This document shows positions 5,258 to 63,603 of a stretch of 64,000 nt of DNA, piece by piece. The notes beneath the pieces are model-generated. The model saw only the letters and a program-made list of their open reading frames with translations, was not told the DNA's origin and did no database searches. A program made the position numbers and the translations under genes. This DNA comes from an uncultured Ruminococcus sp. (GTDB lineage: Bacteria > Bacillota > Clostridia > Oscillospirales > Ruminococcaceae), in contig CACZPI010000059.1 of assembly GCA_902783005.1 (NCBI GenBank), positions 12,356-76,355 of the forward strand, given 5' to 3'. Each line of letters begins with the position of its first letter. Within the stretch, counting starts at the first letter, position 1.

Positions 5258-5400
5258 AACAGTTCTTCGGGGTATGTGTGATTCATAACCGACGGTGAGC
5301 AGAGGCTGACGCACTCTGTAAGTCCGTGAGCTGCATTTTGCAGCCGAGCCGGTGGGATTCCGGCACCGACGGTACAGTCCGGATGGGAGAAGAATGCATG
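5258..5400 (+). promoter_or_regulatory. FMN riboswitch (RFN element) aptamer
   Basis: Hallmark RFN strings: TTCTTCGGGG (5' P1), ACCGACGGT, CCGTGAGC, GGTGGGATTCCGGCACCGACGGTACAGTCCGGATGGGAGAAGAA (3' P1 pairs GAAGAA with TTCTTC). Located upstream of ribD. Confidence 0.9.
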
Positions 5401-9818: not shown

Positions 9819-9859
9819 ACACAGCTTCGGACACACTCCGAAGCTGTGTTATTTTTTTT
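9819..9859. terminator. Bidirectional intrinsic terminator (rib operon / small convergent gene)
   Basis: ACACAGCTTCGG-acacact-CCGAAGCTGTGT followed by T8 on the plus strand. The T-tract also encodes the C-terminal EKK of the minus-strand gene. Confidence 0.85.
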
Positions 9860-10064
9860 CATCTTCCCCGCCGATCTTCCGTCCGCAGATGGGGCAATAC
9901 TGCGCCACCTTCCGTTCTCCCGGCGTATCCTCCCGATAGGCGATCAGCACCGTTCCCTCCTTACAGAATGGACATTTCTCTTCCTTAGGCGGATCCTTGG
10001 GCAAAGCCATAGCCAGGAAAAACATCCCTACTGCTCCTAAAATAACATATACATCCCAGTCCAT
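9849..10064 (-). CDS. Small membrane-anchored zinc-ribbon protein (71 aa)
   Basis: GGAGGG 7 nt before the ATG. N-terminal TM helix (VYVILGAVGMFFLAMAL) followed by CPFC..(19)..CPIC. Confidence 0.7.
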   Translation of the reverse strand: MDWDVYVILGAVGMFFLAMALPKDPPKEEKCPFCKEGTVLIAYREDTPGERKVAQYCPICGRKIGGEDEKK

Positions 10065-10184
10065 TCTGTTCCCTCCTTCCGGCTCCGTCTCTATTTCCGG
10101 TTCTCTACCCTTATTATATCATAAAACGCGTTGTCTTGCAAGAGGATTTCATGAAAGGAATCAACGGCAATTATGAAATACCTA

Positions 10185-10213
10185 TTGACTTTCTCGGCTT
10201 GGTATGATATAAT
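10185..10213 (+). promoter_or_regulatory. sigma-A promoter of the GCL cassette (TTGACT-17-TGaTATAAT)
   Basis: Consensus -35, 17-nt spacer, extended -10. Confidence 0.75.
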
Positions 10214-10228
10214 AATACTATTCCTACA
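10208..10228 (+). promoter_or_regulatory. Operator-like element overlapping -10/+1 (TATAATAATACTATTCCTACA), twin of 23336-23356
   Basis: 19 of 21 positions identical to the metY-operon promoter read in its transcription direction. Both also share TATTGACTT at -35. Confidence 0.5.
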
Positions 10229-10277: not shown

Positions 10278-11669
10278 ATGCTTGACAAGAATACCATCAA
10301 TCAGGCGCTGTACGACAAGTACATTGCCCCGACAAAAAAAGAACGCTCGCACAGTATCGGTATTGAGGTAGAGATGCCGGTCGTAAATCTGGACGGGCAG
10401 GCTGTGGAGGAATCGGTTTCACTGCAGGTCGCTGACACCTTCCGGAACCATTTCGGGTTTCAGGTGCAGGGACAGGATGCAGACGGGAACTGCAATTCCA
10501 TGTCTGATCCGGTTTCCCTTGATAATCTGTCCTTCGACTGCTCCTATTCCAACCTGGAGCTGAGTCTGGGTAAGGAAACCAACCTTCTGAAGATCCGGGA
10601 GACATTTCTGACCTATTACCGATTCCTGCAGCAGGAATTCGGGAAGTTCGGTTACAGCCTGACCGGAATGGGCATCAATCCGCACTACAACATCAACCAC
10701 AACAAGCCTGTTCCCAATGAACGCTACCGGATGCTCTACCGCTACCTGCATTCCTATCGAGATCATGCAGAGGGGCGGGAGCTGAAATTCCATGACCGTC
10801 CGGACTTCGGAACCTTTACCAGTGCATCCCAGGTGCAGCTCGATGTGGACTATGACCGGCTGATTGAGGAGCTGAATGTATTCGGGTTGCTCGAACCCTA
10901 CAAAGCGCTGCTCTTTGCCAATTCTTATCTGCCGGAATATCCGGATTATCTATGCGCACGGAACATGCTCTGGGAACGTAGCATGCAGGGCTATAACCCC
11001 CATAATGTCGGTATGTTCGGCACTCCCCTGCACAGCATTGAGGAGCTGCTCGCCTACATCCGAACACAATCCGTCTACTGCACGATGCGGGACGGAAAAT
11101 ACATTCATTTTACGCCCATTCCTGTGGGAGAATATTTCTCCAGACCCTATGTTGCGGGTGAATACTTCGATGGGCAGAACTACCAGAGCATTCGTTTTTC
11201 ACCGGAAGCATCCGATCTGGATTACCTTCGCACCTTCAAATTCGAGGACCTCACCTTCCGCGGAACCATCGAATACCGCAGCTCCTGCTGCCAGCCCATC
11301 CGCGATGTGATGACCGTTGCGGCGCTGCATGTAGGACTGAGCAAGCAGGTGCCCAACCTGAAAGAACTGATGGAAGCCGATGAGGTGATTTACGGAAACG
11401 GATACAATGCAGATGAGCTGCAGCATCTTCTGTCAAAGCGGGAACTGCCCGGATTCCTCGATCGGAAGGCCGTTTCAGCTCAGCTGAAACGGATCCTGGA
11501 TATTGCATTCGACGGGTTACGCCTGCGGGGACTGGGAGAGGAAATATTGCTGGATCCGCTGTATACCCGTGCAGAACGTCTGTCAAATCCGGCACGGGAT
11601 ATGGTGGAAGGACTGGAACGCGGTGTATCACTGGAACACTTTATCCGGGATTATGCGGAGGTGATCTGA
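10278..11669 (+). CDS. Glutamate-cysteine ligase family 2 (GCS2, plant/EgtA-like carboxylate-amine ligase), 463 aa
   Basis: GxExE start of the catalytic barrel (IGIEVEMP), PNERYRML, QVQLDV, ALLFANS and TIEYRSSC blocks in the order seen in GCS2/plant-type GCL. AAGGAGG RBS. Confidence 0.75.
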   Translation: MLDKNTINQALYDKYIAPTKKERSHSIGIEVEMPVVNLDGQAVEESVSLQVADTFRNHFGFQVQGQDADGNCNSMSDPVSLDNLSFDCSYSNLELSLGKETNLLKIRETFLTYYRFLQQEFGKFGYSLTGMGINPHYNINHNKPVPNERYRMLYRYLHSYRDHAEGRELKFHDRPDFGTFTSASQVQLDVDYDRLIEELNVFGLLEPYKALLFANSYLPEYPDYLCARNMLWERSMQGYNPHNVGMFGTPLHSIEELLAYIRTQSVYCTMRDGKYIHFTPIPVGEYFSRPYVAGEYFDGQNYQSIRFSPEASDLDYLRTFKFEDLTFRGTIEYRSSCCQPIRDVMTVAALHVGLSKQVPNLKELMEADEVIYGNGYNADELQHLLSKRELPGFLDRKAVSAQLKRILDIAFDGLRLRGLGEEILLDPLYTRAERLSNPARDMVEGLERGVSLEHFIRDYAEVI

Positions 11670-12832
11670 TGCAGTTTAACCATGACTTCTATGCAGGACA
11701 ATTCGGACTGGAGCGCGAAACGCTCAGAATTGACAAAAACGGTCGATTGGCACAGACGCCGCATCCGTCTTCGGATCCGCATATCACCCGCGACTTCTGC
11801 GAAAATCAGATCGAACTGATTACGCCGGTATGCCATTCTGTGGAGGAGGCGCTTGCGTCACTGGCTGCTCTTGATAAGACAGCCAGAGAAACACTTGATC
11901 GCATGGGAGAACAGATCTGGCTTTACAGCAACCCGCCGCACTTTGAAACGGAAGATGAAATTCCGGTGGCAGATTTTCGCGGTGAGCATGCGTCCAAACG
12001 CAATTACCGCGAACTGCTGGAAAGGCGGTACGGAAAAAGACTGATGCTGTATTCGGGCATTCATTTCAACTTTTCATTCAGTGAAGCGTGGCTGCATGAA
12101 TTACAACCAGGCGGGAACGATCAGGAATGCAAGAATGCGTTTTACCTGCGGCTGTACAAGCAGCTTTGCGTGCATAGCTGGCTCCTGGTACTGCTGACAG
12201 CAGCCAGTCCTGTCTATGATAAATCGCTGGACGAAGATAATACAGCCGGAATGATCCGGAGCCGCTATGCATCCATGCGAAACAGCGAGAGAGGTTACTG
12301 GAATGAGTTTATTCCGATTCTCGATCACACAGATCTTGGCACATTTACGGACAGCATCCAGTACTATATCGACAAGGGCGCCCTCTTCTCGGCAAGTGAA
12401 CTGTACCTTCCCATTCGCCTGAAACCAAGGGGGATCAATACGCTGGACAATCTGGCGAAAAACGGAGTAGATCACATCGAACTGCGGATGTTTGACTTAA
12501 ATCCCCTGACCCCCCTTGGAATCGCACCGGAGGATGCGGAATTTGCACATCTTCTTATTCTGTATCTCTCGCAGCAGGAGGATTTCACGTTTACGCCTGC
12601 TATGCAGGAGGAGGCAATCATCAACCACCAGAATGCAGCGCTGTATGATCTGCATGGAGTGACCATTCACAGTATCCCGATCCTCGAGCAGGCAAATACC
12701 ATTCTTGACCACATGTACGCATTCTTTGAAGACAATGACAGAAGCAGACAGGTCATCACCTATGAAAGACAAAAGCTGCAGGATCCGATCTCACATCGGA
12801 TCACAGGCAGCATTTACCAGATAAAGGAGTGA
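11669..12832 (+). CDS. GshA-type (enterobacterial/GshF N-domain-like) glutamate-cysteine ligase homolog, short form 387 aa
   Basis: GLERETLRI, HPSSDPHITRDFCENQIELITP, RNYRELLERRYG and SGIHFNFSF match the GshA signature blocks. TGATG overlap with the upstream gene. Confidence 0.8.
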   Translation: MQFNHDFYAGQFGLERETLRIDKNGRLAQTPHPSSDPHITRDFCENQIELITPVCHSVEEALASLAALDKTARETLDRMGEQIWLYSNPPHFETEDEIPVADFRGEHASKRNYRELLERRYGKRLMLYSGIHFNFSFSEAWLHELQPGGNDQECKNAFYLRLYKQLCVHSWLLVLLTAASPVYDKSLDEDNTAGMIRSRYASMRNSERGYWNEFIPILDHTDLGTFTDSIQYYIDKGALFSASELYLPIRLKPRGINTLDNLAKNGVDHIELRMFDLNPLTPLGIAPEDAEFAHLLILYLSQQEDFTFTPAMQEEAIINHQNAALYDLHGVTIHSIPILEQANTILDHMYAFFEDNDRSRQVITYERQKLQDPISHRITGSIYQIKE

Positions 12833-12837
12833 ATGCC

Positions 12838-13593
12838 ATGTGTGAGCTGATGGGCTTCACGGCAAAGCAGCCAACCAATATCAAGCAATATCTGAACACA
12901 TTTTATTCTCACAGCATTCGTCATCCGCACGGATGGGGTCTTATGCGGGAGCAGCCGGAGCGTGAGATCATCAAGGAGGCCGTCCGTGCCGTAGACAGCC
13001 ATATCCTTCCTGACATTATTGAGGGAACGCATCTCCAGACTACGACGCTTGCGCATATCCGCTTCGCGACAGTCGGTTCGATCCGGCAGGAAAACTGCCA
13101 TCCCTTCACAAGCCGTGACCGATTCGGACGGGAATGGACTTTGATCCACAACGGCACCATTTACTCCGGCAAAACCATGCTGCGCAGGATGGAAGAACAA
13201 AAGGGAGATACGGACTCCGAACGTATGTATCTGTCTCTGATGGATGCCCTGAATGCGCAGGAGCATCCCTTGTCCATGGAGGAGCGTTTCCGTTTGATTG
13301 AACGATTCATCGCTGATACCGCACCCCGCAACAAGCTGAATCTGATGATCTACGACGGAGAACTCCTGTATGTGCACAAGAACATGCGTGAAACGCTGAA
13401 AATGCGGCGTGTGGAACAAGGCTGGCTCTTTGCGACAACGCCCATTGATGATTCCGGTGCATGGCAGGATTTTCCGACTTCTCAGGTCATGGCCTACAGA
13501 AACGGGGAGCTGCTCTTCATCGGGACAAAGCATGGCGGTGAATTCGTTCCGACGCTGGAATACATCACGGCAATGGATGCCATGAATATCTGA
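12838..13593 (+). CDS. Class II (Ntn, Cys1) glutamine amidotransferase-like protein, YafJ/EgtC-like
   Basis: MCELMG N-terminus (nucleophile Cys after Met), HIRFATVG..NCHPF, HNGTI, DSE. AAGGAG 8 nt before ATG 12838. The track start 12829 is a GTG overlapping the upstream stop. Confidence 0.85.
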   Translation: MCELMGFTAKQPTNIKQYLNTFYSHSIRHPHGWGLMREQPEREIIKEAVRAVDSHILPDIIEGTHLQTTTLAHIRFATVGSIRQENCHPFTSRDRFGREWTLIHNGTIYSGKTMLRRMEEQKGDTDSERMYLSLMDALNAQEHPLSMEERFRLIERFIADTAPRNKLNLMIYDGELLYVHKNMRETLKMRRVEQGWLFATTPIDDSGAWQDFPTSQVMAYRNGELLFIGTKHGGEFVPTLEYITAMDAMNI

Positions 13594-13599
13594 TACAGG

Positions 13600-13639
13600 C
13601 TATGCTATAGAGTGGATCTATGGCATAGTATTCTTTTTT
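13600..13639 (+). terminator. Intrinsic terminator of the GCL cassette
   Basis: 11-bp stem CTATGCTATAG / CTATGGCATAG (one G-U), 7-nt loop, then TATTCTTTTTT. Confidence 0.7.
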
Positions 13640-13644
13640 CATAT

Positions 13645-14587: not shown

Positions 14588-14608
14588 TGCCGGAACGTGC
14601 TGTTTTTC
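14571..14608. terminator. Bidirectional intrinsic terminator between convergent metF and cysN
   Basis: AGCACGTTCCGG-tatgatg-CCGGAACGTGCT with GTTTTTC on plus and a T-rich run on minus. It contains the metF stop and abuts the cysN stop. Confidence 0.85.
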
Positions 14609-16301
14609 AGATATAAGCACCAGATATAAAGATTTTACGGAATGTATCAAAGCAGAGCCACTTTCCGAACAGATCCGGGAGTGTCGCTTCGTCCGATCCT
14701 GCATAATCCTGCATGAACTGACGCACATCTTCATCCGTTTGCGCCTGAACTGCAAAGCCACGGCCATTGACCAGCGGCACGCTGCCGTCATAATGATAAT
14801 CCTCAAATCGTTCGAGCTTCTGTACAACACGACCGCGGATCGTAACAGCAACCCTGTCCCGCAGCACGATGATATCCAGATCATCCGGGTATGCGTAGCT
14901 TTTGCCCTGTGTCGGGATCTCATCTCCCACATGATAGGTGTTCCGGATGGTCTGTGCGTGGAATACATTGTAGCTGTTTACATCGTAGTAGAATTCCTCG
15001 AACAGATCGCCCTTTGCATGCAGCGTTCCGTCAGTAAATGACGCATCCTCCTGCACATCTGCACGGTCATGGACGCTTTCAACGACACCGCAAGCCGATG
15101 TCATATTTGTCACGCGGTCAATCAGAATGAGCTCGCCAAGTGTGCGATGCACTGCAAACCGGTCTGCCGGGATTGCTTCCTGCAATGTCACCGTGCAACG
15201 TGCAATGCTGTTTTTGTTCAGCCGATCTGCCGGGATATGTTCACCGGTGTTGATATCTACTGCATACAGAATGGATGTCAGCACACCGGGAATCAGCTTG
15301 GTTCCCAGCTTGACAAGATAATCCTTGCCGACCGTCAGATCGCTGTCATCCATCCAGAGGAGAGATACCTCCAGCTTTTTGTATGCGGCAAGGGCATCGT
15401 CGGTTGTCAGCACACTTCCGCGGGAAACGTCCACTTCCCTGTCGAGCGTGATGGTAACAGGCTGCCCTGCATAAGCTGCATTCACATTGTGATCCGTATG
15501 TAAAATACCCTTCACAGCAGCGGTTTCATGACTCGGAAGCACACGGATTGTATCTCCGACTGCAATGCTGCCTGACTCGATCTGCCCCTGAAATCCCCGG
15601 AAGGTATGATCCGGACGGCATACACGCTGGACAGGAAGATAAAATGCTTCTTCACGCGAGGCATCAACATCCACCTGTTCAAGATAAGTCAGAAGCGGCT
15701 CACCGGTATACCACGGCATCTGATCAGAATGCGTTGTCACATTGTCTCCCTCGGTTGCGGAAAGAGGAATGACCTTCACCTGTTCAAGCCCCAATGCAGA
15801 GGCAAGCTCTGAAATATCCGCTTCAATGGCGCGGTATTTTGCTTCATCGTAGCCGATCAGATCCATTTTATTTACGGCGAATACATAATGCCAGATGCCC
15901 ATGAGCGAGCAGATTCTTGCATGGCGGCGAGTCTGCACCAGAATGCCCTGCGAGGCATCTACCAGGATCACAGCCAGATCCGCGAAGGATGCACCAACTG
16001 CCATATTCCGGGTGTATTCCTCATGGCCGGGGGTATCTGCTACGATAAAGCTGCGGTGATCTGTCGTAAAATAGCGGTAGGCCACATCAATCGTGATTCC
16101 CTGTTCGCGCTCTGCCATCAGCCCGTCAAGCAGCAGCGAATAATCAATTCCGCCGCTGCGGCTCCCGACCTTGCTGTCAAGTGCCAGCGCCTTTTCCTGA
16201 TCGGCATAGAGGAGCTTGGCATCATACAGAATATGCCCGATCAGCGTAGATTTTCCATCATCCACACTGCCGCATGTGATGAATTTCAGAAGTCCCTTCA
16301 T
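14607..16301 (-). CDS. cysN: Sulfate adenylyltransferase subunit 1 (GTPase) with ~140-aa C-terminal extension of unknown function
   Basis: G1 GSVDDGKST, G3 DTPGH, G4 NKMD; EF-Tu-like domains II/III end near ILIDRVTNMTSACGVV. The remaining ~140 aa have no P-loop. TGATG overlap with cysD. Confidence 0.9.
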   Translation of the reverse strand: MKGLLKFITCGSVDDGKSTLIGHILYDAKLLYADQEKALALDSKVGSRSGGIDYSLLLDGLMAEREQGITIDVAYRYFTTDHRSFIVADTPGHEEYTRNMAVGASFADLAVILVDASQGILVQTRRHARICSLMGIWHYVFAVNKMDLIGYDEAKYRAIEADISELASALGLEQVKVIPLSATEGDNVTTHSDQMPWYTGEPLLTYLEQVDVDASREEAFYLPVQRVCRPDHTFRGFQGQIESGSIAVGDTIRVLPSHETAAVKGILHTDHNVNAAYAGQPVTITLDREVDVSRGSVLTTDDALAAYKKLEVSLLWMDDSDLTVGKDYLVKLGTKLIPGVLTSILYAVDINTGEHIPADRLNKNSIARCTVTLQEAIPADRFAVHRTLGELILIDRVTNMTSACGVVESVHDRADVQEDASFTDGTLHAKGDLFEEFYYDVNSYNVFHAQTIRNTYHVGDEIPTQGKSYAYPDDLDIIVLRDRVAVTIRGRVVQKLERFEDYHYDGSVPLVNGRGFAVQAQTDEDVRQFMQDYAGSDEATLPDLFGKWLCFDTFRKIFISGAYI

Positions 16302-17200
16302 CAGAAATAGCCCTCCCTCTTTCTTCTTTCCATGCTGCCTGCCGCCTCGTTGTCAATTACACGGGATGTGCGCTCCGATTCTACACTGCTCAGCGTTTCC
16401 TCAATGATCTCATCAAGGGTATGCGCGGTCGATTCGATGCCTCCGGTCAGAGGGTAGCAGCCAAGCGTCCGGAACCGGACGGATTTCATCTGCGGCACCT
16501 CACCTTCGCGCAGGGGGAACCTTTCATCATCGACCATAATGATATTGCCATCCCGCTCCACGACAGGGCGCTCCGCTGCAAAATACAGCGGCACAATGTC
16601 GATGTGCTCACGGCGGATATACTGCCAGATGTCCTTTTCTGTCCAGTTGGAGATCGGGAACACACGAATACTCTCGCCCTTGTGAATGCGGGTGTTGTAG
16701 AGCTTCCACATCTCAGGGCGCTGGTTCTTCGGATCCCATGCATGGGTCGCACTTCGGAAAGAGAAGATCCGCTCCTTGGCGCGGGATTTCTCTTCATCAC
16801 GCCTGCCGCCGCCAAATGCCGCTGTGAATCCATATTTGTCAAGCGCCTGCTTGAGCGCCTGGGTTTTCATGATGTCCGTATAGGCGCTGCCGTGGTCGAA
16901 GGGATTGATCCCGCGTGCTACGCCGTCCTGGTTGATATATTCCAGCATTTCGATGCCGAGACGCTTTGCAGTACGGTCGCGGAAGTCAATCATTTCCTTG
17001 AATTTCCATGTCGTATTGACATGCAAAAAAGGAAACGGCGGCTTTTCTGGATAAAATGCCTTCATCGCAAGATGCAGCATGACAGAACTGTCCTTACCGA
17101 TCGAGTAAAGCATGACAGGTCTTTCGCATTCTGCCGCCACCTCCCGGATAATATAGATCGCTTCTGCCTCCAGTTCGTCAAGATGCGTCAGTTCACCCAT
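16301..17200 (-). CDS. cysD: Sulfate adenylyltransferase subunit 2
   Basis: PP-loop SIGKDSSV and typical CysD blocks ([26 protein letters not shown]). ATG 17200 has AGGAGG upstream; the track start 17221 is a TTG. Confidence 0.93.
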
Positions 17201-17217
17201 TATGGTTGCCTCCTGAT

Positions 17218-17532
17218 TCAATATTGATTCGATTCCTTCCGATTCACCTGGATTTCGGTGGTACGTCCGTCCGGATGTTCAATGATCCATCGGAGAATCT
17301 CTCCCTCCTGTTCGGTATGCAGCATACTCCCCTGCCCGCCAATATCTGCACCCAGATAAAAACGAATGGCAGATACCGGGCATTCCTTGACACAGGAGGT
17401 GCATCCCCAGCAGTCGCGGGGATATTTGATATACGCGCGGTGATCGCAGTCAAATTTGATGAGTGTACCGGGGCAGACATCATGACATCTGCCGCAGCCG
17501 ATACAGATCTTGCTGTCAATCCTGATGCTCAT
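17218..17532 (-). CDS. AprB-like 2x[4Fe-4S] ferredoxin subunit of APS (adenylylsulfate) reductase
   Basis: [12 protein letters not shown] and [12 protein letters not shown] cluster motifs. 17-nt overlap with the flavoprotein gene. Confidence 0.8.
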
Positions 17533-19198
17533 AATGACACCCCTTTCCGGTCACAAGATCACGCAGGATCACCCGGATCTCTCCATTTTCCATGCGGGAA
17601 TTGACATACACATTCCAATGTGCGTCATCCCGGTCAGGATAATCGAGATGCTCTGCAAAGCTATGCCAGCGCGTTTCCTGCCGTGCTGCCAGATGTGCAA
17701 TGACACTCCGGCAGACTGTCAGACGCTCACGAAGCTCATAAATATACATAAGCTCCTGAAAATCCGATGCATGCAGCGTATCCGATAATGCTTCAATCTG
17801 TCGGATCTTTTCATCGGCAAGGGCAAGCTGTCCGGCATTGTACCGGTAATTCGTTTTAATTCCGCCTGCGTAGCTGTCCATGACTGTCTGCATCGCTTCT
17901 TCAAGCTGCTCCGTTGTATAGAGAGTATTCCTGTCAGATAAGAAATGCCCGATCTCATGCAAATGCGCATCAATATGCTCTTGCGGGATGCTTGCATGAT
18001 CGCAGTCGAGCAGGAAATGCAGGACAGATTCGGCAGCGATCTCTCCTTCTGCCAATGCGCCGGTGACATATTTCTGCGGGGCACCGCCGCACACATCCCC
18101 GGCTGCATAAAGCCCGCGGATGGTCGTTGCACGCCCGGTATCGACCCAATAGCCGCTGGCCGTATGACCACCGACAATATAGGGCTCCGTCCCTTCAATT
18201 TCGACGTTCTGCGATGCGGGGCCATGCCCGGTTTCGATCCATTTGAGCGTCTGGGAAGGCGCCATATTCAGATAGGCCTTCATCAGTGAATCCTGCTGTT
18301 CATCGGAAATGCCTTCTGTACGCAGGAAGCACGGGCCTCTCCCCTCCTGGTTTTCATTGACAGTGCCATAGACACGTTCGGAAGTGGTCAGTCCGTATTT
18401 CTGCTCATAGACCTCACCCAGGGAATTGATCTGCCTGGCACCAACACCCTGTGCAAGTGTTCCCGTCGGTGCGATGGTGTCCTTGCAGCGAAGTGCGATA
18501 AATCGCATTTCAAAGGTCGTCATCTCGGCACCATGGCGGATTCCCATGGCGTAACCCGCTCCCGTATTGAAGGGCGGGTACCACATCTTATGACGGGAAA
18601 ATCCGGGGTTATTGGGCTTGTATAATCCTGCCGCACCACCGGTCGCCACAATCACGGCATCTGCCTGAATGACATAAAACGTATCATTTTCAATGCCGAT
18701 GCCATAAGCACCACAGATTCGGTTATCCTGTACTTCAAAGTCAATGATGTTCACACGGTTGAGCACCGTCACCTGATCGAGCGCCAATACGGCATCTGCA
18801 AGCAGCGGCTTGATGTTTTCACCGTTGATCTTGATGTTGCGCCAGCCGCGGGAGACATAGTTTCCGGCTGCATCCTTGAGAATGACAAGTCCAAGCTGTT
18901 CGAGCCGGCGCGTCACAGAATTGAGCCGCTCTGACATGGTGACCAGAAGATCCTCACGGGCAATACCTGCGGCATCGTGCATACAGTAATCTGCATAATC
19001 CTGCGGCGTGTGACCCTCTGTAATATAAGCATTGAGCGCATTCACACCCGCTGCAAGACAGCCGCTCCGGCGGATGTGCGCTTTCTCACAGATCAATACC
19101 TGCCTGTCAGACTGTTCTGCGATCGTCAGCGCTGCCCAGCAGCCGGCGGTACCGCCGCCGATGATCAGGACATCTGTGTGTAGAAATTCCTTTTTCAT
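17516..19198 (-). CDS. AprA-like FAD flavoprotein subunit of APS reductase (fumarate reductase/succinate dehydrogenase flavoprotein family)
   Basis: N-terminal DVLIIGGGTAGC dinucleotide fold, 560 aa, paired with the AprB-like ferredoxin and cysDN. AGGAGG RBS. Confidence 0.8.
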   Translation of the reverse strand: MKKEFLHTDVLIIGGGTAGCWAALTIAEQSDRQVLICEKAHIRRSGCLAAGVNALNAYITEGHTPQDYADYCMHDAAGIAREDLLVTMSERLNSVTRRLEQLGLVILKDAAGNYVSRGWRNIKINGENIKPLLADAVLALDQVTVLNRVNIIDFEVQDNRICGAYGIGIENDTFYVIQADAVIVATGGAAGLYKPNNPGFSRHKMWYPPFNTGAGYAMGIRHGAEMTTFEMRFIALRCKDTIAPTGTLAQGVGARQINSLGEVYEQKYGLTTSERVYGTVNENQEGRGPCFLRTEGISDEQQDSLMKAYLNMAPSQTLKWIETGHGPASQNVEIEGTEPYIVGGHTASGYWVDTGRATTIRGLYAAGDVCGGAPQKYVTGALAEGEIAAESVLHFLLDCDHASIPQEHIDAHLHEIGHFLSDRNTLYTTEQLEEAMQTVMDSYAGGIKTNYRYNAGQLALADEKIRQIEALSDTLHASDFQELMYIYELRERLTVCRSVIAHLAARQETRWHSFAEHLDYPDRDDAHWNVYVNSRMENGEIRVILRDLVTGKGCHYEHQD

Positions 19199-19209
19199 GA
19201 TGCCTCCTG

Positions 19210-19620
19210 TCAGAGAATGACAAGCTCCTCACGGTTTGCTTCTGTCCCCTCGATATGGAAGGAATTCAGAACAGGGCTATTCGCATCCTGCAAAGACAGG
19301 ATCAGATAACTTGCCCGGCTGTCAAAAGCCAGACGTTTATCCTCCTCAGAGGGACGCGACGGAGAGGCCGGATGTGAATGCCAGTTGCCCAGCGGAACAA
19401 ATCCACCTGCACGCATATCCTTGATCGCAGTAAGCTGTTCCTTGGGATCAAGTGTGAAATGCTCCTCGGCATGATCGATATTGGTCAGGATGTAGACACG
19501 TTCAATGTGCTTGTCATCGCCGTCGATCGTACCGCCGATCAGACCACACGCCTCCACCGGTGCTTCCTGTCTGGCATGTGCGAGAATACGTTCATAATCC
19601 TCTTTATGCATGGTGATCAT
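19210..19620 (-). CDS. JAMM/MPN+ metalloprotease (Mec+/HcyD/QbsD-like)
   Basis: EACGL upstream Glu and exact HxHx7SxxD motif (HSHPASPSRPSEED). ATGA overlap with the E1 gene stop fixes the start at 19620. Confidence 0.88.
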   Translation of the reverse strand: MITMHKEDYERILAHARQEAPVEACGLIGGTIDGDDKHIERVYILTNIDHAEEHFTLDPKEQLTAIKDMRAGGFVPLGNWHSHPASPSRPSEEDKRLAFDSRASYLILSLQDANSPVLNSFHIEGTEANREELVIL

Positions 19621-20429
19621 AATCCGGTTCCCTCGCATTCTGCCTGTTCATAGTCGATCAGCTTTGTAATGGTCGGATTGCTGCCGCATACCGGGCATTT
19701 GCTGGTATCGTGCGGAAGCGTGATCTTGCGGAAATCCATATTCAGTGCATCATACGTCAGGAGAGATCCCGTCAGGAGCTTACCCTGTCCGATGATATAT
19801 TTGACTGCTTCCATTGCCTGCAGGCTGCCGATCACACCGCCCATCGCACCAATGACGCCTGCCTGCTTGCAGGTCGGCACAGCGTCCTTTGGCGGCGGTT
19901 CCTTGAAGACACAGCGGTAGCAGGGGCCTTCTCCGGGGACATAGGTCATGAGCTGACCCTTGAAACGGATGATGCCGGCATGTGAAAACGGCTTTTTCGC
20001 CATGACGCAGGCATCATTGATCAGGAATTTCGCCGGGAAATTGTCTGTCCCGTCGAGGATGAAATCATAATCCTTGATGATGTCGAGGATGTTTTCACTC
20101 GTAATGAATTCGTGATACGTCACGACCTTCACATCCGGATTGATCGCTTCCATGGATTCTCTGGCAGACTCTACCTTGGGCTTGCCGATATCAGCAGTTG
20201 CATGAATGACCTGACGCTGGAGATTGGAGAGATCCACCTCATCTGCATCCGCAATGCCGATGGTACCGACACCCGCTGCTGCAAGGTACAATGCGGCCGG
20301 TGCTCCAAGCCCGCCAGCTCCGATGATCAGCACCTTTGCATTCAGCAGCTTCTTTTGTCCCTTCGCACCGACCTCCTTGAGGATGATGTGGCGGGAATAG
20401 CGTTCGATCTGCTCATTCGTTAATGCCAT
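19617..20429 (-). CDS. ThiF/MoeB/HesA-type E1-like adenylyltransferase (HcyF/MoeZ-like, no rhodanese domain)
   Basis: RYSRHI, GAGGLG, LQRQ, and zinc CxxC pairs CYRC and CPVC; 270 aa. ATG 20429 (MALTNEQIERY) lies inside the 3' end of the carrier gene. Confidence 0.9.
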   Translation of the reverse strand: MALTNEQIERYSRHIILKEVGAKGQKKLLNAKVLIIGAGGLGAPAALYLAAAGVGTIGIADADEVDLSNLQRQVIHATADIGKPKVESARESMEAINPDVKVVTYHEFITSENILDIIKDYDFILDGTDNFPAKFLINDACVMAKKPFSHAGIIRFKGQLMTYVPGEGPCYRCVFKEPPPKDAVPTCKQAGVIGAMGGVIGSLQAMEAVKYIIGQGKLLTGSLLTYDALNMDFRKITLPHDTSKCPVCGSNPTITKLIDYEQAECEGTGL

Positions 20430-20634
20430 ACTGACCGCCTCCCATGAAATACAGGAACTCCACACTGTCGCCGTCATGAAGCACCGTGCTCTCGAATGCG
20501 CCGCTCTCGACAAATTCATCATTGATGGTGACGGTCACATACTGCGGGGTCTCGACATTCTCATCAATCACCAGCTGTGCTACGGTCAGTCCGTCTGCAA
20601 CCTCTTTCTGTACGCCTGCTACTGTAATCTTCAT
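20413..20634 (-). CDS. ThiS/MoaD-like sulfur-carrier protein with GG followed by a 6-residue tail (..FMGGG-QYGINE)
   Basis: 73-aa beta-grasp-sized ORF (MKITVAGVQKEV..DSVEFLYFMGGGQYGINE). AAGGAGGA lies 7 nt before ATG 20634. The track start 20685 overlaps the thioredoxin gene. Confidence 0.85.
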   Translation of the reverse strand: MKITVAGVQKEVADGLTVAQLVIDENVETPQYVTVTINDEFVESGAFESTVLHDGDSVEFLYFMGGGQYGINE

Positions 20635-20647
20635 AATCGTTTCCTCC

Positions 20648-20962
20648 TTAAAGTGCTGCAATTGCAGCTTCAATTTCTTCTGCATTGACTGCGCCGCGCA
20701 GACGGTTCACCTCAGTGCCGCCCTGAAACAACACAAGCGTCGGTGCTGCCTGGATCTCATATTGTTCTGTCAAGGCTTCCTCATAGAGAATATTGACCTT
20801 GACAATCTTCACCTGCTCTCTGAACTGCTCCTCAAGCCGGGTCAGGATCGGAGACAGGCGCTTGCAGGGAATGCAGCTGTCGGAATAAAAATCAACCAGC
20901 ACCGGCTTCTCTGCGGCCAGTACCTCTGATTCAAATTCCGCTGCCGTAATGCGCTGTGCCAT
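20648..20962 (-). CDS. Thioredoxin-family protein with CIPC active site
   Basis: VLVDFYSDSCIPCKRL in place of the WCGPCK block, thioredoxin length (104 aa). ATG 20962 preceded by AGGTGGGGG. Confidence 0.88.
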   Translation of the reverse strand: MAQRITAAEFESEVLAAEKPVLVDFYSDSCIPCKRLSPILTRLEEQFREQVKIVKVNILYEEALTEQYEIQAAPTLVLFQGGTEVNRLRGAVNAEEIEAAIAAL

Positions 20963-20963
20963 G

Positions 20964-21209
20964 TCAATCCCCCACCTTTCTGACGATGAGGGTATAGGTT
21001 CCGTCGCCGTTGTCATCGAGCTTCAGGATCTTGTGTCCCTCCTCCTTGATGCTGCGCGGAACATTCTGCACCGGTTCTCCGTCGTTCATTCTGACAGCGA
21101 GAATATCGCCGTCGTCGAGTTCTTCAAGAGCCACCTTTGCCTTGACAAAGGTCACCGGGCAAACCACATCCGTAATATCTACGGTGTCTGTAATCGTAAT
21201 ATCAGCCAT
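20964..21209 (-). CDS. TusA/SirA-family sulfur-relay protein (81 aa)
   Basis: Conserved Cys-Pro motif DVVCPVTFVKAK followed by GDILAV..D. The ATG overlaps the sulfite reductase stop, with GGAGG upstream. Confidence 0.85.
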   Translation of the reverse strand: MADITITDTVDITDVVCPVTFVKAKVALEELDDGDILAVRMNDGEPVQNVPRSIKEEGHKILKLDDNGDGTYTLIVRKVGD

Positions 21210-22065
21210 TATGATACGCCTCCATGATTTTCTCATTAAATTTGTCCCACCCGATCCGGTCAAGCGTAAACTTAAAACGTTCCCCCGGAAGAGCATTGTC
21301 GTCAAAGAACTGAATTGCCGTGTCGCAGATGCGCATGAGCGTGTCATGATCCTCGATAAACGGGATCACTGCTTCACCCTTGGCAATGTGATTGCCGAAC
21401 AGTCCGCCAAAGCTGACGACATACCCCTGAATCGTGTCCCATGCATCCGTAGGACAGGCCTTGCAGCAGCGTCCGCAGAAGTTGCACAGGTCACTGTTGA
21501 CCGTGATCTTGCCATCCTCCAGCGCAATCGCCTTGCTGCGGCATGCCTTGACACAGACACCGCAGGAAATGCAGTCCGCTTCACGCCATGTCACCTTGAT
21601 GCCGCCCTTGATACCAAGATCATTCTCCTCGGCTTTCAGACAGTTGTTCTGGCAGCCGGTGATGCCAAACTTGAATTTATGCGGCAGCTCTCTCGCAAAA
21701 TACCGATCATCAAGCTCCTTGGCAAGCGCATAGGTATCAATACATCCGCTCGGACAAATCGCTGCGCCCTGACAGGCCGTAATGGTTCTGACACGAGGTC
21801 CGCAGACACCCGGCTCCACACCGCCGTCTGCAAGTGCTGCCTTCACGGAATCAATCTCCTCGAGCTTGATAAAGGGAATCTCAATACTCTGACGCGAGGT
21901 CAGATGCACATGACCGTCGCCGAATTGTTCTGCGACCTCTGCGATCTTGGCAAGCTGTACTGCCGTGACATTGCCGCCGACCACGCGCAGGCGCAGAGAA
22001 AAATGATTCTTCTGCTTCTGCCGCATAAAGCCGCCCTTTTTCAGTGTTCCGTAATCTACTGCCAT
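21202..22065 (-). CDS. Small siroheme sulfite/nitrite reductase family protein with inserted 2x[4Fe-4S] ferredoxin domain
   Basis: Siroheme-[4Fe-4S] ligand motifs CQGAAIC (Cx5C) and GCQNNC (Cx3C), ferredoxin motifs CISCGVCVKAC and CNFCGRCCKACP. ATG 22065 follows AAAGGAG by 8 nt. Confidence 0.85.
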   Translation of the reverse strand: MAVDYGTLKKGGFMRQKQKNHFSLRLRVVGGNVTAVQLAKIAEVAEQFGDGHVHLTSRQSIEIPFIKLEEIDSVKAALADGGVEPGVCGPRVRTITACQGAAICPSGCIDTYALAKELDDRYFARELPHKFKFGITGCQNNCLKAEENDLGIKGGIKVTWREADCISCGVCVKACRSKAIALEDGKITVNSDLCNFCGRCCKACPTDAWDTIQGYVVSFGGLFGNHIAKGEAVIPFIEDHDTLMRICDTAIQFFDDNALPGERFKFTLDRIGWDKFNEKIMEAYHNG

Positions 22066-22081
22066 GGTACTCACTCCTTTA

Positions 22082-23311
22082 TTATGACTGTGATGCTTCT
22101 ATTGCCTGGGAAAAATCCGCGATCAGATCTTCGGCGTCTTCAATTCCGACACTGATGCGGATGGTGTCGCTGTATACCCCCGCAAGCTCTTGTTCCGCTT
22201 CGCTGCTATGCGCATAGATCGTACTTGCCGGATGAATAACAAGCGTCCGGACATCTCCGATATTCGTAGCGATCTTCGCATATTGCAGGTGATTCATCAG
22301 ACGAAACGCCCGTTCCTTACTACCTGTACGGATGGTCAGGATCGCACCGCCCTTCCCGCCGAACTGGGCTTCAGCCAGTGTATGAGACGGACTGGAGGCA
22401 AGGCCGGGATAATTAACTTCGATCCCCGGTGTATGAGCAAAGAATTCCGCGAGCTTCTGTGCATTACAACAGATTTTTTCCATCCGCAGACCTAAAGTTT
22501 CCAGGCCGATGGTATTCAGAAATGCATGAAACGGTGCCAGACAACAGCCTGTATTGCGCCAGATGTCATTCCGGAGTCTTGCCAGATAAGCAAATTTCCC
22601 GAAGCGCTTATACTCAGAAAATCCAGGATAGCGCTCCGGATTCCAGCTGAAATGTCCGCTGTCAATAATCACACCGCTGATCGCATCACCGCTTCCGTTG
22701 ATATACTTGGAAGTCGAATGGATCACAACATCCGCACCGTATTCAAACGGATGCACAAGATACGGTGTTGCCGTTGTGCTGTCGATCAGCAAAGGAATAC
22801 CGTGCTTGTGACACACCTCTGAAACCGCCCGGATATCAACGATATCCAGCTTCGGATTGCCAATCAGCTCGGTGAATACTGCTTTTGTGCGATCGTTAAT
22901 CAAGGATCCGACCGATTCGGCAGTAATGGAATCTGCAAATCTTGTCACAATTCCAAATGCCTGGAGGTCACGCAAAAGATCAATTGTACCTCCGAATAGC
23001 CCTGCTCCGGCAATGATCTCATCTCCGGATTGCAGGATATTCAGAAGAGACATTGTAACCGCCGCCATTCCCGAGGAACAGGCTACTGCGCCGATGCCCC
23101 CTTCTAAAGCCGCGATCCGCTTTTCAAAGGCATCTACTGTCGGATTCCCGATCCGGGAATATGCAAAACCCGGTGCTTTGTTATGGAATACCTCCTCGAG
23201 CTTTTCAGCAGATCCGTGAGAAAATGCGCTGACCTGATAGACAGGCGGCAGCGTCGCACCGTTCGGATCGGATGCATCCGCTTTATGTAAAAGTGCTGTA
23301 TTGAACTGCAT
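22082..23311 (-). CDS. metY: O-acetylhomoserine sulfhydrylase-type PLP enzyme (Cys/Met metabolism family)
   Basis: Family blocks YSRIGNPT, SGMAA and the PLP-lysine motif HSTSKYINGSGD. Two in-frame ATGs: 23317 is 3 nt from the AAGGGAG SD, 23311 is 9 nt from it and was chosen. Confidence 0.9.
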   Translation of the reverse strand: MQFNTALLHKADASDPNGATLPPVYQVSAFSHGSAEKLEEVFHNKAPGFAYSRIGNPTVDAFEKRIAALEGGIGAVACSSGMAAVTMSLLNILQSGDEIIAGAGLFGGTIDLLRDLQAFGIVTRFADSITAESVGSLINDRTKAVFTELIGNPKLDIVDIRAVSEVCHKHGIPLLIDSTTATPYLVHPFEYGADVVIHSTSKYINGSGDAISGVIIDSGHFSWNPERYPGFSEYKRFGKFAYLARLRNDIWRNTGCCLAPFHAFLNTIGLETLGLRMEKICCNAQKLAEFFAHTPGIEVNYPGLASSPSHTLAEAQFGGKGGAILTIRTGSKERAFRLMNHLQYAKIATNIGDVRTLVIHPASTIYAHSSEAEQELAGVYSDTIRISVGIEDAEDLIADFSQAIEASQS

Positions 23312-23335
23312 GGACATTCACTCCCTTAGTTGTGT

Positions 23336-23356
23336 TGTAGGAACAATATTATTATA
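23336..23356 (-). promoter_or_regulatory. Operator-like element overlapping -10/+1 of the sulfur operon (TATAATAATATTGTTCCTACA on minus)
   Basis: 19/21 identical to 10208-10228. The TTCCTA core resembles the ATTCCKA half of the reverse-complemented CymR box. Confidence 0.5.
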
Positions 23357-23379
23357 GCCTATTAAACATAGTAAGTCAA
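23351..23379 (-). promoter_or_regulatory. sigma-A promoter of the metY-to-cysN operon (TTGACT-17-TATAAT)
   Basis: Perfect hexamers read on the minus strand. This leaves a 5' UTR of only ~25-30 nt, so there is no room for an S-box or T-box. Confidence 0.75.
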
Positions 23380-23454
23380 TATGCTTTATGAATATTCTAT
23401 CAATATAACATATATAACCAGTAGGTTAAGTATAGATTTGTTGAAAATACCCAC

Positions 23455-23483: not shown

Positions 23484-23542
23484 AACTATATACATATGTT
23501 TACTATGTTTTAAGAATACAAACTTGAAAGGAAGTGATCGTC

Positions 23543-23992
23543 ATGAAGATCTCCACCAAGGTCGAATGCGGTATCATCGCACTGGTGGACATCTGTATCC
23601 ATGCCGACGGAGATGAGGTCGTGACCATTGTAACAATCGCACGGCGACAGAACCTCTCGGCAAAATATCTCGAACAGATCGTTCCTCTGTTGAAACACGC
23701 TGATATCATACGAAGCGTCAAAGGTGCCAAGGGCGGATACAGACTCTCACGCTCGCCGCAACAGATCAATATGAAACAAGTGGTAACAGCACTCGACAGC
23801 ACTGTGCTGAGCGATGCGGTATTCGATCAGATGGAACAGACGCATATCATCTCAGCGATAGACAAATGCATGTGGAACAGGATGTCTGATTCGCTTCGCA
23901 ATATTGCAGAGCAGATCACCCTTGCGGATATTGCGGAGCATTACGGACAGATCTCTGATGAAAATGCAGAACAGCTGATGTACTATATCTAA
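23543..23992 (+). CDS. Rrf2-family transcriptional regulator (CymR/IscR-like)
   Basis: Winged-helix block MKISTKVECGIIALVDI..IARRQNLSAKYLEQIVPLLKHADIIRSVKGAKGGYRL. ATG 23543 follows AAAGGAAG. No three-Cys cluster motif is evident, so it is CymR-like rather than IscR-like. Confidence 0.88.
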   Translation: MKISTKVECGIIALVDICIHADGDEVVTIVTIARRQNLSAKYLEQIVPLLKHADIIRSVKGAKGGYRLSRSPQQINMKQVVTALDSTVLSDAVFDQMEQTHIISAIDKCMWNRMSDSLRNIAEQITLADIAEHYGQISDENAEQLMYYI

Positions 23993-36585: not shown

Positions 36586-38007
36586 TTATTCTTCGCCGCT
36601 CCAGCAATAGGTGCAAAGCTCACACTGCGGTCTGCCGATCGCACGGACAGTGCCTTCAAGCGACTGGAATTCCAGGCTCGTCAGCTTCAGCCGGCGACAG
36701 ATCTCATCACGCAGCCGTCTGCCGCGCTCTGTTTCGGAGTTGCTGTATTCTGCAAGATACTTCATTCCCTCGGCACCTTCAAATGCATCAATTACCTGAC
36801 GGGCAATCAGCTCCATTTCAGATGTGCTTCGCGAGAAGTTCAGATATTTGCAGCCGTACATGATCGGCGGACATGCAGAACGCATGTGTACTTCCTTCGC
36901 GCCGTTCTCGTAGAGGAATTCGACGGTCTCACGCATCTGCGTTCCGCGGACGATACTGTCATCCACGAACAGCAGGCGCTTGCCTTCGATCAGCTCATGT
37001 ACCGGGATCAGCTTCATCTTGGCAACCTGGTTGCGCAGAGTCTGGCTGGTCGGCATGAAGCTGCGCGGCCAGGTAGGCGTATACTTGATGAACGGTCTTG
37101 CAAACGGGATACCGCTCTTGTTGGCATAGCCAATGGCATGGGGCGTACCGGAATCCGGAACACCGCAGACATAATCCACATCGGGCAGCCTGCCGGCCTT
37201 CATATCGTTTTCGGCCATGATCTCACCATTTCGTGTACGCATGGTCTCAACAGTGACACCCTCATAAACAGCGTTCGGATAGCCGTAATAGGTCCACATG
37301 AAGGAGCAGATCTTCAGATCATCCTTGCCCGGTGCAAGCGTTTCACAGCTCCGGGAGGTCAGGCGGACAATCTCACCTGCCTTCAGTTCCTTGAAGGTAT
37401 AATAACCGAGCTTCTGGAATGCAAAGGATTCGAGCGAGCAGCAATAACCGTCATCGCGCTTGCCGATGATAATGGGCAGTCTGCCGTCCTTGTCCCGGGC
37501 GCAGATGATTCCATCCTCTGTCAGCACGATCAGGTTCATGGTGCCTTCGATCTTTTCCTGTGCATAGCGAATACCCTCTGTAAAGGTATTTTTCTGCGAA
37601 ATCAGAGCACCGATCAGATCGCCGGAATTGATATTGCCGCTGCTCATGGATTCAAAGCTGGCACAGCCGTTTTCAAGCAGCTCATCGACAATCTGCTGCG
37701 CATTGCGGATGATTCCGACACTGCACACCGCATACAAACCAAGGCGTGAACGCATCAGGATGGGCTGCGGATCGGTGTCACTGATGCAGCCGATGCAGAG
37801 ATTTCCCTGCATATGGGTCACATCATTTTCAAACTTGGTTCTGAAAGGCGAATTCTCAATACTGTGAATCGCCCGCTGGAATCCATGGGTCTTGCACCAT
37901 GCGGTCATGCCGCCGCGGCGGGTGCCAAGATGGGAATGATAATCAGTCCCGAAGAATACGTCTGTGACGCAGTCATTTTCAGATGCTGCTCCGAAAAAGC
38001 CACCCAT
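36586..38007 (-). CDS. purF: Amidophosphoribosyltransferase-like protein lacking the N-terminal nucleophile Cys (starts MGGFFG)
   Basis: PRTase domain (LLFVDDSIVRGTQ) and C-terminal Cys-rich region. The N-terminus aligns to the CGVFG region of canonical PurF but has Gly where Cys1 should be. The start is fixed by GGGAGA and the adjacent purC stop. Confidence 0.85.
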   Translation of the reverse strand: MGGFFGAASENDCVTDVFFGTDYHSHLGTRRGGMTAWCKTHGFQRAIHSIENSPFRTKFENDVTHMQGNLCIGCISDTDPQPILMRSRLGLYAVCSVGIIRNAQQIVDELLENGCASFESMSSGNINSGDLIGALISQKNTFTEGIRYAQEKIEGTMNLIVLTEDGIICARDKDGRLPIIIGKRDDGYCCSLESFAFQKLGYYTFKELKAGEIVRLTSRSCETLAPGKDDLKICSFMWTYYGYPNAVYEGVTVETMRTRNGEIMAENDMKAGRLPDVDYVCGVPDSGTPHAIGYANKSGIPFARPFIKYTPTWPRSFMPTSQTLRNQVAKMKLIPVHELIEGKRLLFVDDSIVRGTQMRETVEFLYENGAKEVHMRSACPPIMYGCKYLNFSRSTSEMELIARQVIDAFEGAEGMKYLAEYSNSETERGRRLRDEICRRLKLTSLEFQSLEGTVRAIGRPQCELCTYCWSGEE

Positions 38008-63556: not shown

Positions 63557-63603
63557 TTTCTTCATTCCTCCAATCAATATGTCACACTCTGAATGTCAAT
63601 TCA

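Follow-up and report, generated by a model that had tools for sequence, protein, structure and literature searches.

Peptides of the glutathione type are known to be made either by GshA plus GshB or by the bifunctional GshF (GshAB; Streptococcus, Listeria, and Pasteurella; PDB entries 3ln6 and 3ln7), in which a glutamate-cysteine ligase (GCL) is fused to an ATP-grasp synthetase. Further described systems with which a locus of this kind can be compared are the plant and alpha-proteobacterial GCL (GSH1; 2gwc), the mycobacterial ergothioneine enzymes EgtA and EgtC, i.e., a GCS2-type ligase and a GATase_4 Cys1 hydrolase that removes the γ-glutamyl group, the yeast Dug2-Dug3 proteins, and the hmrA/ldmS operon of Staphylococcus aureus, which encodes an L-Asp-L-Met ligase and an amidohydrolase and carries Met/Cys regulatory elements (PMC9486568). 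Here, we analyzed a stretch of 64,000 nucleotides from an uncultured Ruminococcus sp. (contig CACZPI010000059.1, positions 12,356 to 76,355; referred to below as the window), which contains an operon of three open reading frames (ORF1, ORF2, and ORF3; Table 1), termed the trio in the following. The thiol chemistry of strictly anaerobic Clostridia, which are dominant in rumen and gut, is poorly known. The trio comprises two GCL-type ligases without a glutathione synthetase, followed by a Cys1 enzyme of the N-terminal nucleophile (Ntn) type, and appears to be wired into the cysteine regulon.

The reading we favor, though tentatively, is that of a self-contained γ-glutamyl-cysteine peptide unit inside the cysteine/methionine regulon of an Oscillospiraceae bacterium from the rumen. 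For its substrates, the order of its steps, and its product, we infer the following scheme. ORF1 would most likely join glutamate and cysteine to γ-Glu-Cys, and ORF2 would catalyze a second Glu-dependent ligation, either on the product of ORF1 or on a second sulfur amino acid. ORF3 would then cut the γ-glutamyl amide, freeing glutamate and the cysteine-containing moiety, and the net result would be a regulated build-and-release pool for cysteine supplied by a co-regulated sulfate-assimilation/homocysteine operon. The ligase pair would be comparable to GshA plus GshB within GshF, with both partners having the GCL fold and no ATP-grasp enzyme being involved.

Among the known systems, GshF resembles the trio in that ORF2 has its best match in the GCL half of GshF, that both belong to Firmicutes, and that both pair two ligases, which are fused in some relatives of the trio. 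However, the partner ligase in the trio has the GCS2/plant-GCL fold rather than the ATP-grasp fold, the ligases are encoded by separate genes in the window, the set has a GATase_4 protein as an obligatory further component, and ORF2 carries the exchanges Q144M and Y151F. The GshF-like coupling or fusion of a GCL to an ATP-grasp synthetase is not seen in the trio; the fusions found combine a GCL-type with a GCS2-type ligase. The plant and alpha-proteobacterial GCL is the best structural and profile match of ORF1, which nevertheless falls into a separate subfamily of Clostridia and Lactococcus. With EgtA/EgtC, the trio has in common that a GCS2-type ligase is accompanied by a GATase_4 Cys1 hydrolase; it differs by its additional GshA-type ligase, its anaerobic host, and a score of ORF3 on the EgtC equivalog model TIGR03442 of 58.2 versus a cut-off of 218.65. 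No EgtB/EgtD-type partners were found among the conserved trio neighbors in related loci, the window itself not having been examined gene by gene for EgtB/EgtD. The EgtA/EgtC analogy drawn in an earlier reading of this DNA from the letters alone (the sequence-only reading) stands at the family level for ORF1 and ORF3; the trio has no conserved companion enzyme for sulfur transfer or another modification. The likeness to Dug2-Dug3 lies in the described activity of a type 2 amidotransferase-like protein cleaving γ-Glu-Cys (PMC9012958), whereas ORF3 is bacterial, is co-transcribed with synthetases, and has no Dug2 partner. In hmrA/ldmS, too, a dipeptide-forming ligase is paired with an amidohydrolase under Met/Cys control, but the ligase is an ATP-grasp enzyme, the hydrolase belongs to M20, and the product is an α-dipeptide. 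As judged from the sequences, the module is a combination of a GshF GCL half, a GCL of plant-type fold, and an EgtC-type hydrolase, without the ATP-grasp step of known glutathione pathways. Literature searches for the trio, for GCS2 plus GATase clusters, and for Ruminococcus GCL retrieved no experimental characterization; a paper on glutathione in E. rectale concerns other genes.

The stop codon of ORF1 overlaps the start codon of ORF2 in the sequence TGATG (11667-11671), and 5 nucleotides (12833-12837) separate the stop codon of ORF2 from the ATG of ORF3, for which an upstream in-frame GTG at 12829 was judged a less likely start. The promoter scan identified a strong sigma-70-type promoter, TTGACT-17-TATAAT with a TG extension (10185-10213; 11 of 12 matches), whose -35 hexamer occupies 10185-10190 and whose extended -10 element TG-TATAAT ends at 10213. 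The sequence-only reading had described three coupled genes with their own promoter and terminator, and these are present at the coordinates listed in Table 1; all sequence blocks it quoted (IGIEVEMP, ALLFANS, GLERETLRI, ITRDFCENQIELITP, and GIHFNFSF) occur in the ORF translations. Profile hidden Markov models assigned ORF2 to PF04262 and ORF3 to GATase_4, while the GCS2 match of ORF1 was sub-threshold and its placement draws on fold-level support.

Specifically, the GCS2 Pfam score of ORF1 is 16.9 bits, under the gathering cut-off of 21, which is exceeded by its relatives P0241 (26.3) and P0267 (33.7). ORF1 alone had no match among the NCBIfam models, including the plant-type TIGR01436 and the EgtA models, and since a search of the PDB with the single sequence gave no meaningful match either, a family profile was needed. 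The profile of 30 ORF1 relatives retrieved plant GCL 2gwc at 2.8e-9 and YbdK at 3e-4. The AlphaFold model of ORF1 (AF2; predicted local distance difference test, 80.5) had 2gwc as its best Foldseek match (E 2e-11, TM 0.69-0.72), with YbdK and GshA ranking behind. Identity to plant GCL is about 15%, and the motifs QVxLD, LFANS, R..W, and ExR are common to the ORF1 family and plant GCL. Down to 23% identity, E30, E32, E94, Q185, N215, S216, R228, E332, R334, C337, and Q339 are invariant or nearly so within the family; among them is the predicted catalytic acid/arginine set of ExE, distal E, and ExR (E30, E32, E94, E332, and R334). ORF1 is predicted to act as an ATP-dependent carboxylate-amine ligase; it belongs to a divergent GCS2 subfamily, its fold resembles that of plant GCL, and it is probably a γ-glutamylcysteine ligase (γ-GCL) itself. 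Of its earlier designation as GCS2/plant/EgtA-type, the plant-GCL part is upheld by profile and fold, whereas the EgtA part found no counterpart in the model searches.

A clade 33% identical to ORF1 occurs in lactococci and streptococci. In Pseudolactococcus (L099:6001-8509), the ORF1-type gene overlaps, and is translationally coupled to, a gene for a 385-residue ATP-grasp protein that matches solely the GshB half of GshF (NF002688 positions 418-755; 453.8 bits, cut-off 425); the lactococcal ORF1 relative scores 45 versus a cut-off of 463 on TIGR01436. In S. parasanguinis, the ORF1-type gene stands alone. The Pseudolactococcus locus looks like a split GshF in which the ORF1-type protein has apparently taken the place of the GshA half by non-orthologous replacement. 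Since the trio-linked and the GshB-linked clades have their invariant residues in common, ORF1 is most simply regarded as a γ-GCL, in which case ORF2 would be a second GCL-like enzyme and no obvious glutathione synthetase would be left in the trio. ORF2 occupies the operon slot that is held in lactococci by the glutathione-synthetase half. A tblastn search of the window with E. coli GshB-type and GshF-C-half-type queries detected no such ATP-grasp gene, in line with what the sequence-only reading had stated, and none lies within 10 kb of the trio across 87 related loci. The only ATP-grasp proteins seen in the window are PurD and a TupA-like protein (62612-63577, minus strand). The latter, encoded at the window edge, has no relation to glutathione synthetases.

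ORF2 matches PF04262 at 1.7e-59 (201.8 bits, cut-off 27) and covers positions 13-388 of the 756 positions of the GshF model NF002688, i.e., the entire GCL half. Its nearest solved relatives are GshF 3ln6 and 3ln7 (2.6e-45), followed by the E. coli and Francisella GshA. It had previously been called a truncated GshA; this does not hold, the protein being a complete GshF-type GCL half, and the extra C-terminal helices are found only in E. coli GshA. Scores remain under the NCBIfam equivalog cut-offs (GshAB model, 270.7 versus 425; TIGR01434, 143.5 versus 393), ORF2 corresponding to just one of the two halves of the bifunctional GshAB model. ORF2 retains E27, E29, D60, E67, T70, Y131, R132, H150, N152, R235, Y241, Y300, E328, and R330 of E. 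coli GshA, and the catalytic and Cys-site residues are also identical in four other members of its clade. We take E27, E29, E67, H150, E328, and R330 to be metal/ATP/Glu ligands, whereas Y131, R132, R235, Y241, and Y300 presumably form the Cys site. The Glu site appears to be complete, as does the Y241/Y300 carboxylate triad, which would accommodate a free amino acid as acceptor. The clade is set apart by the signature Q144M, Y151F, and I146F/Y (E. coli numbering): Gln144 and Tyr151 are constant in all four solved GCLs, where ORF2 has Met and Phe, and the Q144M/Y151F exchange recurs in 118 to 119 of 120 ORF2 homologs, including distant clade members in other gene contexts. It had been considered that one of the two ligases might be a pseudoenzyme; this was ruled out, since the catalytic residues are kept on alignment both in the ORF1 family and in ORF2. 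Nor are the two ligases non-homologous, as had been proposed, but distant members of one superfamily. The names given to trio homologs by NCBI, 'glutamylcysteine synthetase' and 'glutathione synthase', appear to have been transferred by homology, and for ORF2 homologs the latter name seems to go back to similarity with GshF that is confined to its GCL half.

ORF3 matches GATase_4 at 2e-29 (102.8 bits, cut-off 23) and is related to PA1307 (1te5) and, distantly, to EgtC. It retains Cys1, the Arg, the Asn-Gly oxyanion pair, and the Asp binding the glutamyl α-amino group, which together make up the class II glutamine site, and shows the motifs MCELMG, HIRFAT, HNG, and TDSE. IRxAT, HNG, and TDSE are present in all 54 orthologs inspected and the MCE N terminus in 51 of them, and ORF3 is always retained beside ORF2. 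Dug3 is described in PMC9012958 (citing Kaur 2012) as resembling type 2 glutamine amidotransferases; it cleaves the γ-Glu-Cys bond and is induced under sulfur limitation. Because characterized stand-alone proteins of the type 2 glutamine-amidotransferase kind (EgtC and Dug3) hydrolyze γ-Glu-Cys, whereas ammonia-channeling class II enzymes are fused to their synthase, ORF3 is probably, by analogy, a γ-glutamyl amidohydrolase rather than an ammonia donor.

A word-indexed search yielded approximately 1,900 ORF1 relatives, forming 611 clusters at 50% identity, and at least 564 species-representative genomes encode one. For genome scanning, a closer set of 12 sequences was used instead of the 32-sequence ORF1 alignment, which was too diverse. 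The best 80 loci stem from Ruminococcus, other Oscillospiraceae, Monoglobus, and Acutalibacteraceae; six contigs were too short, leaving 74 informative loci. The order ORF1-ORF2-ORF3 is conserved in 65 of these 74 species genomes (46-67% identity), so that the trio can be regarded as a conserved unit, whereas ORF1 is found alone in the remaining nine. As the ORF1-alone loci show the same sulfur neighbors (ThiF - ORF1 - MetK) as the trio loci, ORF2 and ORF3 have presumably been lost or moved there. Rearranged versions exist elsewhere, namely ORF2-ORF3-ORF1 beside CysK and a sulfate ABC transporter, and ORF3 followed by an ORF1-ORF2 fusion. In two loci, L092 (1939-13275) and L094, ORF2 and ORF3 occur without ORF1 and are flanked by two unrelated ATP-grasp ligases.

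Ligase-ligase fusions were found in both orders, GshA-type plus ORF1-type (884 residues) and ORF1-type plus GshA-type (887 and 889 residues). They form three independent protein clusters with 5, 7, and 10 full-length members, respectively, from independent contigs and assemblies, and their existence argues that the two ligases act together. A fusion of an N-terminal GATase_4 domain to an ORF1-type ligase was seen in a single 717-residue sequence. This sequence is a singleton on a 3.2-kb contig from a lineage with ORF3 directly upstream of ORF1, and it may have arisen artificially through an assembly error or a frameshift.

Some further features of these loci are reported for completeness. ORF1 stands alone in R. 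albus, in a subset of the R. flavefaciens strains, and in several metagenome-assembled genomes of Ruminococcus/Oscillospiraceae; strains MC2020 and SAb67 have ORF1 alone, whereas the R. flavefaciens strains 007c and Y1 have the trio. Genomes with ORF1 alone offer natural controls for what ORF2 and ORF3 do, and the fused variants are natural controls as well. Sulfur neighbors (ThiF, SufS, MetK, metNIQ) were recognized in the ORF1-alone loci L004, L025, L046, and L056, and none were identified in L058 and L087. The gene order in L092/L094 is CysK, cystathionine lyase, LCM-type methyltransferase, two esterases, ATP-grasp, ORF2-type ligase (439 residues), GATase_4, ATP-grasp, esterase, and CysK. 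The gap between ORF1 and ORF2 exceeds 500 nucleotides in 11 trio loci, and a gene of the beta-lactamase family (SxxK; about 290 residues) can be inserted there on the opposite strand (e.g., L063:2505-3374 and L011:11383-12258, both minus strand); this gene family is present in 15 loci overall.

The connection to sulfur metabolism is most apparent at the promoter. In the window, CCTATTGAC overlaps the -35 hexamer of the trio promoter, and just past the -10 element, inside a 21-nucleotide element, lies ATTCCTA, which reads TAGGAAT on the opposite strand. The pattern of this element, TATAATAATAYTRTTCCTACA, has exactly two copies in the window, at 10208-10228 (plus strand) and 23336-23356 (minus strand), with 0 expected from shuffles. 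The second copy belongs to the promoter of the sulfate/homocysteine operon, with which the trio promoter shares a 46-nucleotide stretch at 78% identity. This minus-strand operon (14607-23317) encodes MetY, an AsrC-like sulfite reductase, thioredoxin, MoeB/ThiF, a JAMM protein, AprA, AprB, CysD, and CysN. Both the sulfur amino-acid neighborhood and the operator-like element claimed in the sequence-only reading are borne out by these matches. The make-up of this sulfate-assimilation operon, in which CysDN, an APS reductase of the AprAB type, the sulfite reductase, and thioredoxin are joined by an adenylyltransferase of the MoeB/ThiF type, a JAMM protease, and MetY, suggests a protein-thiocarboxylate-dependent synthesis of homocysteine.

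Divergent from this operon lies a gene for an Rrf2-family protein, which scores over the cut-off of TIGR00738 and matches the CymR model NF047409 at 1.7e-29 (102.7 bits), under the cut-off of 195; it is the candidate repressor for both operators. An Rrf2 gene nearby and an operator common to sulfur-metabolism promoters are what a putative CymR-type regulon would display. CymR, together with CysK, represses cysteine-forming genes in Bacillus and Staphylococcus (PMC2869319). If the analogy holds, derepression of the trio would go along with that of sulfate assimilation. In many related genomes, the ORF1 promoters have CCTATTGACA-N3-TAGGAAAT over the -35 hexamer and a second TAGGAAT or ATTCCTA past the -10 element. 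The density of TAGGAW upstream of ORF1 is 0.41 per 100 nucleotides versus 0.08 in other intergenic DNA (about 5-fold), and the motif is also enriched upstream of Rrf2, ABC ATPase, and MetY genes. ThiF-type, SufS, SufBD, CysK, MetY, MetK, and ABC transporter genes recur as trio neighbors in related loci, and 17 of these loci have an Rrf2 gene at a distance of no more than 10 kb from the trio.

In the R. flavefaciens lineage, the operon opens with a gene for a small ACT protein (ACT-ORF1-ORF2-ORF3) and is preceded by a Met/Cys-rich leader ORF of 20 to 23 codons (MQVYMCKMDNCIISCSAPVVS, MQVHMCKMNICITGPALSVS), after which a GGAGACA...TGTCTC terminator follows in L023, L028, L033, and L042. In L028, CUCCGCG has two alternative pairing partners, the start of the leader and the terminator arm; the fold of the region has z = -4.1. 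The leader looks like a Met/Cys-sensing peptide attenuator, which these relatives have instead of the TAGGAA-type operator. The occurrence of two unrelated devices, TAGGAA operator and leader attenuator, ties the operon to the supply of sulfur amino acids. Control of the trio by a riboswitch or T-box was ruled out, the sole Rfam match in the window being an FMN riboswitch at 5259-5398.

Table 1. Coordinates of the trio and of associated elements
Feature	Position	Strand	Length	Description
Trio promoter with operator	10181..10228	+		promoter scan; shared 21-nucleotide element at 10208-10228
ORF1	10278..11669	+	463 aa	predicted divergent GCS2 subfamily ligase, plant-GCL-like fold
ORF2	11669..12832	+	387 aa	free-standing GshA/GshF-N-half-type glutamate-cysteine ligase
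ORF3	12838..13593	+	251 aa	from ATG, MCELMG; class II Ntn Cys1 GATase_4, EgtC/PA1307 type
Intrinsic terminator	13599..13640	+		hairpin with 13-bp stem at 13599-13629, then T-run
Second promoter/operator copy	23336..23381	-		drives MetY-AprAB-CysDN operon, 23317 down to 14607
Rrf2-family regulator	23534..23992	+		best model CymR; divergent from sulfate/homocysteine operon
Leader region	L028:9575-9715			R. flavefaciens 007c; also L023, L033, L036, L037, L042, L048, and L053

The families of the three proteins, the fold of ORF1, the intact catalytic residues, the conservation, the fusions, and the shared operator are directly supported. Several points weigh against the build-and-release scheme. 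Both ligases look like complete GCLs, and a sequential tripeptide pathway is therefore not required; ORF2 moreover has Met and Phe in place of Q144 and Y151. ORF1 occurs alone in nine loci, and L092 and L094 have ORF2 and ORF3 without ORF1, beside unrelated ATP-grasp ligases. A synthetase and a hydrolase on one transcript look futile unless regulation or an intermediate step separates them, and a CymR-type repressor site would mean induction at cysteine scarcity, an odd moment to consume cysteine. Yeast GSH1 and the DUG genes likewise share a sulfur regulon. Of the two successive ligations proposed in the sequence-only reading, the cooperation of the ligases is supported by the fusions, but their succession is only one of several readings, because ORF1 relatives occur alone or coupled to a GshB-type ATP-grasp enzyme.

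Doubtful, in our view, is a route to a new low-molecular-weight thiol of anaerobic Oscillospiraceae, γ-Glu-Cys-X or de-glutamylated Cys-X, in which a GCL-fold enzyme would replace the ATP-grasp synthetase and an EgtC-like hydrolase would remove the γ-glutamyl group. If a glutathione analogue or a new thiol were indeed the product, the trio would represent a third way to such peptides after GshA plus GshB and GshF, a function would be assigned to a GCS2 subfamily missed by current models, and the label 'glutathione synthase' on ORF2 homologs would be corrected.

An ordinary glutathione or γ-Glu-Cys metabolism, with the ligase or ligases making γ-Glu-Cys, GshB encoded elsewhere, and ORF3 degrading a sulfur reserve in the manner of Dug3, is unlikely. 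The GCL-like active sites of both ligases, the pairing of lactococcal ORF1-type genes with a GshB half, and the NCBI names of the homologs are consistent with it, and with 64 kb of the genome in view there is room for GshB elsewhere. However, two different and often fused GCLs would be superfluous for such a role, no GshB-type or GshF-C-type gene is found in the window or in the 87 related loci, and the name 'glutathione synthase' for ORF2 seems to derive from the GCL half of GshF alone. Strictly anaerobic Clostridia are not known to produce glutathione, which we also count against this explanation.

Rather unlikely is a protect-modify-deprotect sequence in the manner of EgtA/EgtC, in which cysteine would be γ-glutamylated, its carboxylate would be joined to an amine X by the second ligase, and ORF3 would remove glutamate to give a new amide thiol, Cys-X, similar in its design to bacillithiol or mycothiol. 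The pair of families is that of EgtA (GCS2) and EgtC (GATase_4), ORF3 is always kept beside ORF2, the ligase fusions suggest channeling, and an ATP-grasp enzyme of the GshB or GshF-C type is missing from the window and the 87 loci. Neither ligase pocket seems remodeled for a dipeptide as acyl donor, though, since the full Glu site and the Y241/Y300 triad of ORF2 are intact and the ORF1 residues are invariant across trio-linked and GshB-linked clades; furthermore, ORF1 functions alone in some genomes.

We consider it improbable that ORF1 and ORF2 act in parallel, γ-glutamylating different sulfur amino acids (e.g., cysteine and homocysteine or methionine) for release by ORF3, as a shuttle through which the two products of the neighboring operon would be stored in γ-glutamyl form or detoxified. 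Such a division of labor would agree with the resemblance of both enzymes to GCLs, with the loci in which each occurs without the other, with leader peptides of R. flavefaciens rich in both Met and Cys codons, and with MetY, MetK, metNIQ, and CysK in the neighborhood; yet parallel-acting enzymes are less usually fused than consecutive ones, and no specificity-determining difference was identified between the two ligases. Highly improbable is a glutamine-dependent amidoligase, with ORF3 supplying ammonia to a ligase that converts a γ-Glu-Cys carboxylate to a carboxamide: the 717-residue fusion has the classical class II amidotransferase architecture and ORF3 all glutamine-binding residues, but this fusion is a singleton and possible artefact, ORF3 is a separate protein in 65 of 65 trio loci, characterized stand-alone enzymes of its type are hydrolases, and ORF2 keeps an amino-acid acceptor site. 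Two further candidates were rejected, namely Pup-like tagging by a PafA/Dop-style ligase and deamidase, as the free-amino-acid acceptor site of ORF2 is intact and no conserved gene nearby encodes a small protein with Gln or Glu at its C terminus, and cysteine synthesis on a γ-glutamyl scaffold, as the operon has no conserved sulfur-inserting enzyme.

In the window, the trio is preceded by a rib operon and a HAD phosphatase gene and followed by MTHFR. The FMN riboswitch (plus strand), scoring 95.7 bits, precedes the genes of the ribD-ribE-ribBA-ribH operon. A 473-residue ORF (36586-38007, minus strand), located in a purine operon with PurD, PurH, PurN, PurM, and PurC around it, had no Pfam match at E 1e-6; PurF would be expected at this position. 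Between the rib operon and the trio, an ORF of 71 residues (9849-10064, minus strand) without a Pfam match features a hydrophobic N terminus and two CxxC motifs (CPFC...CPIC), and it has been called as a gene in identical metagenome contigs.

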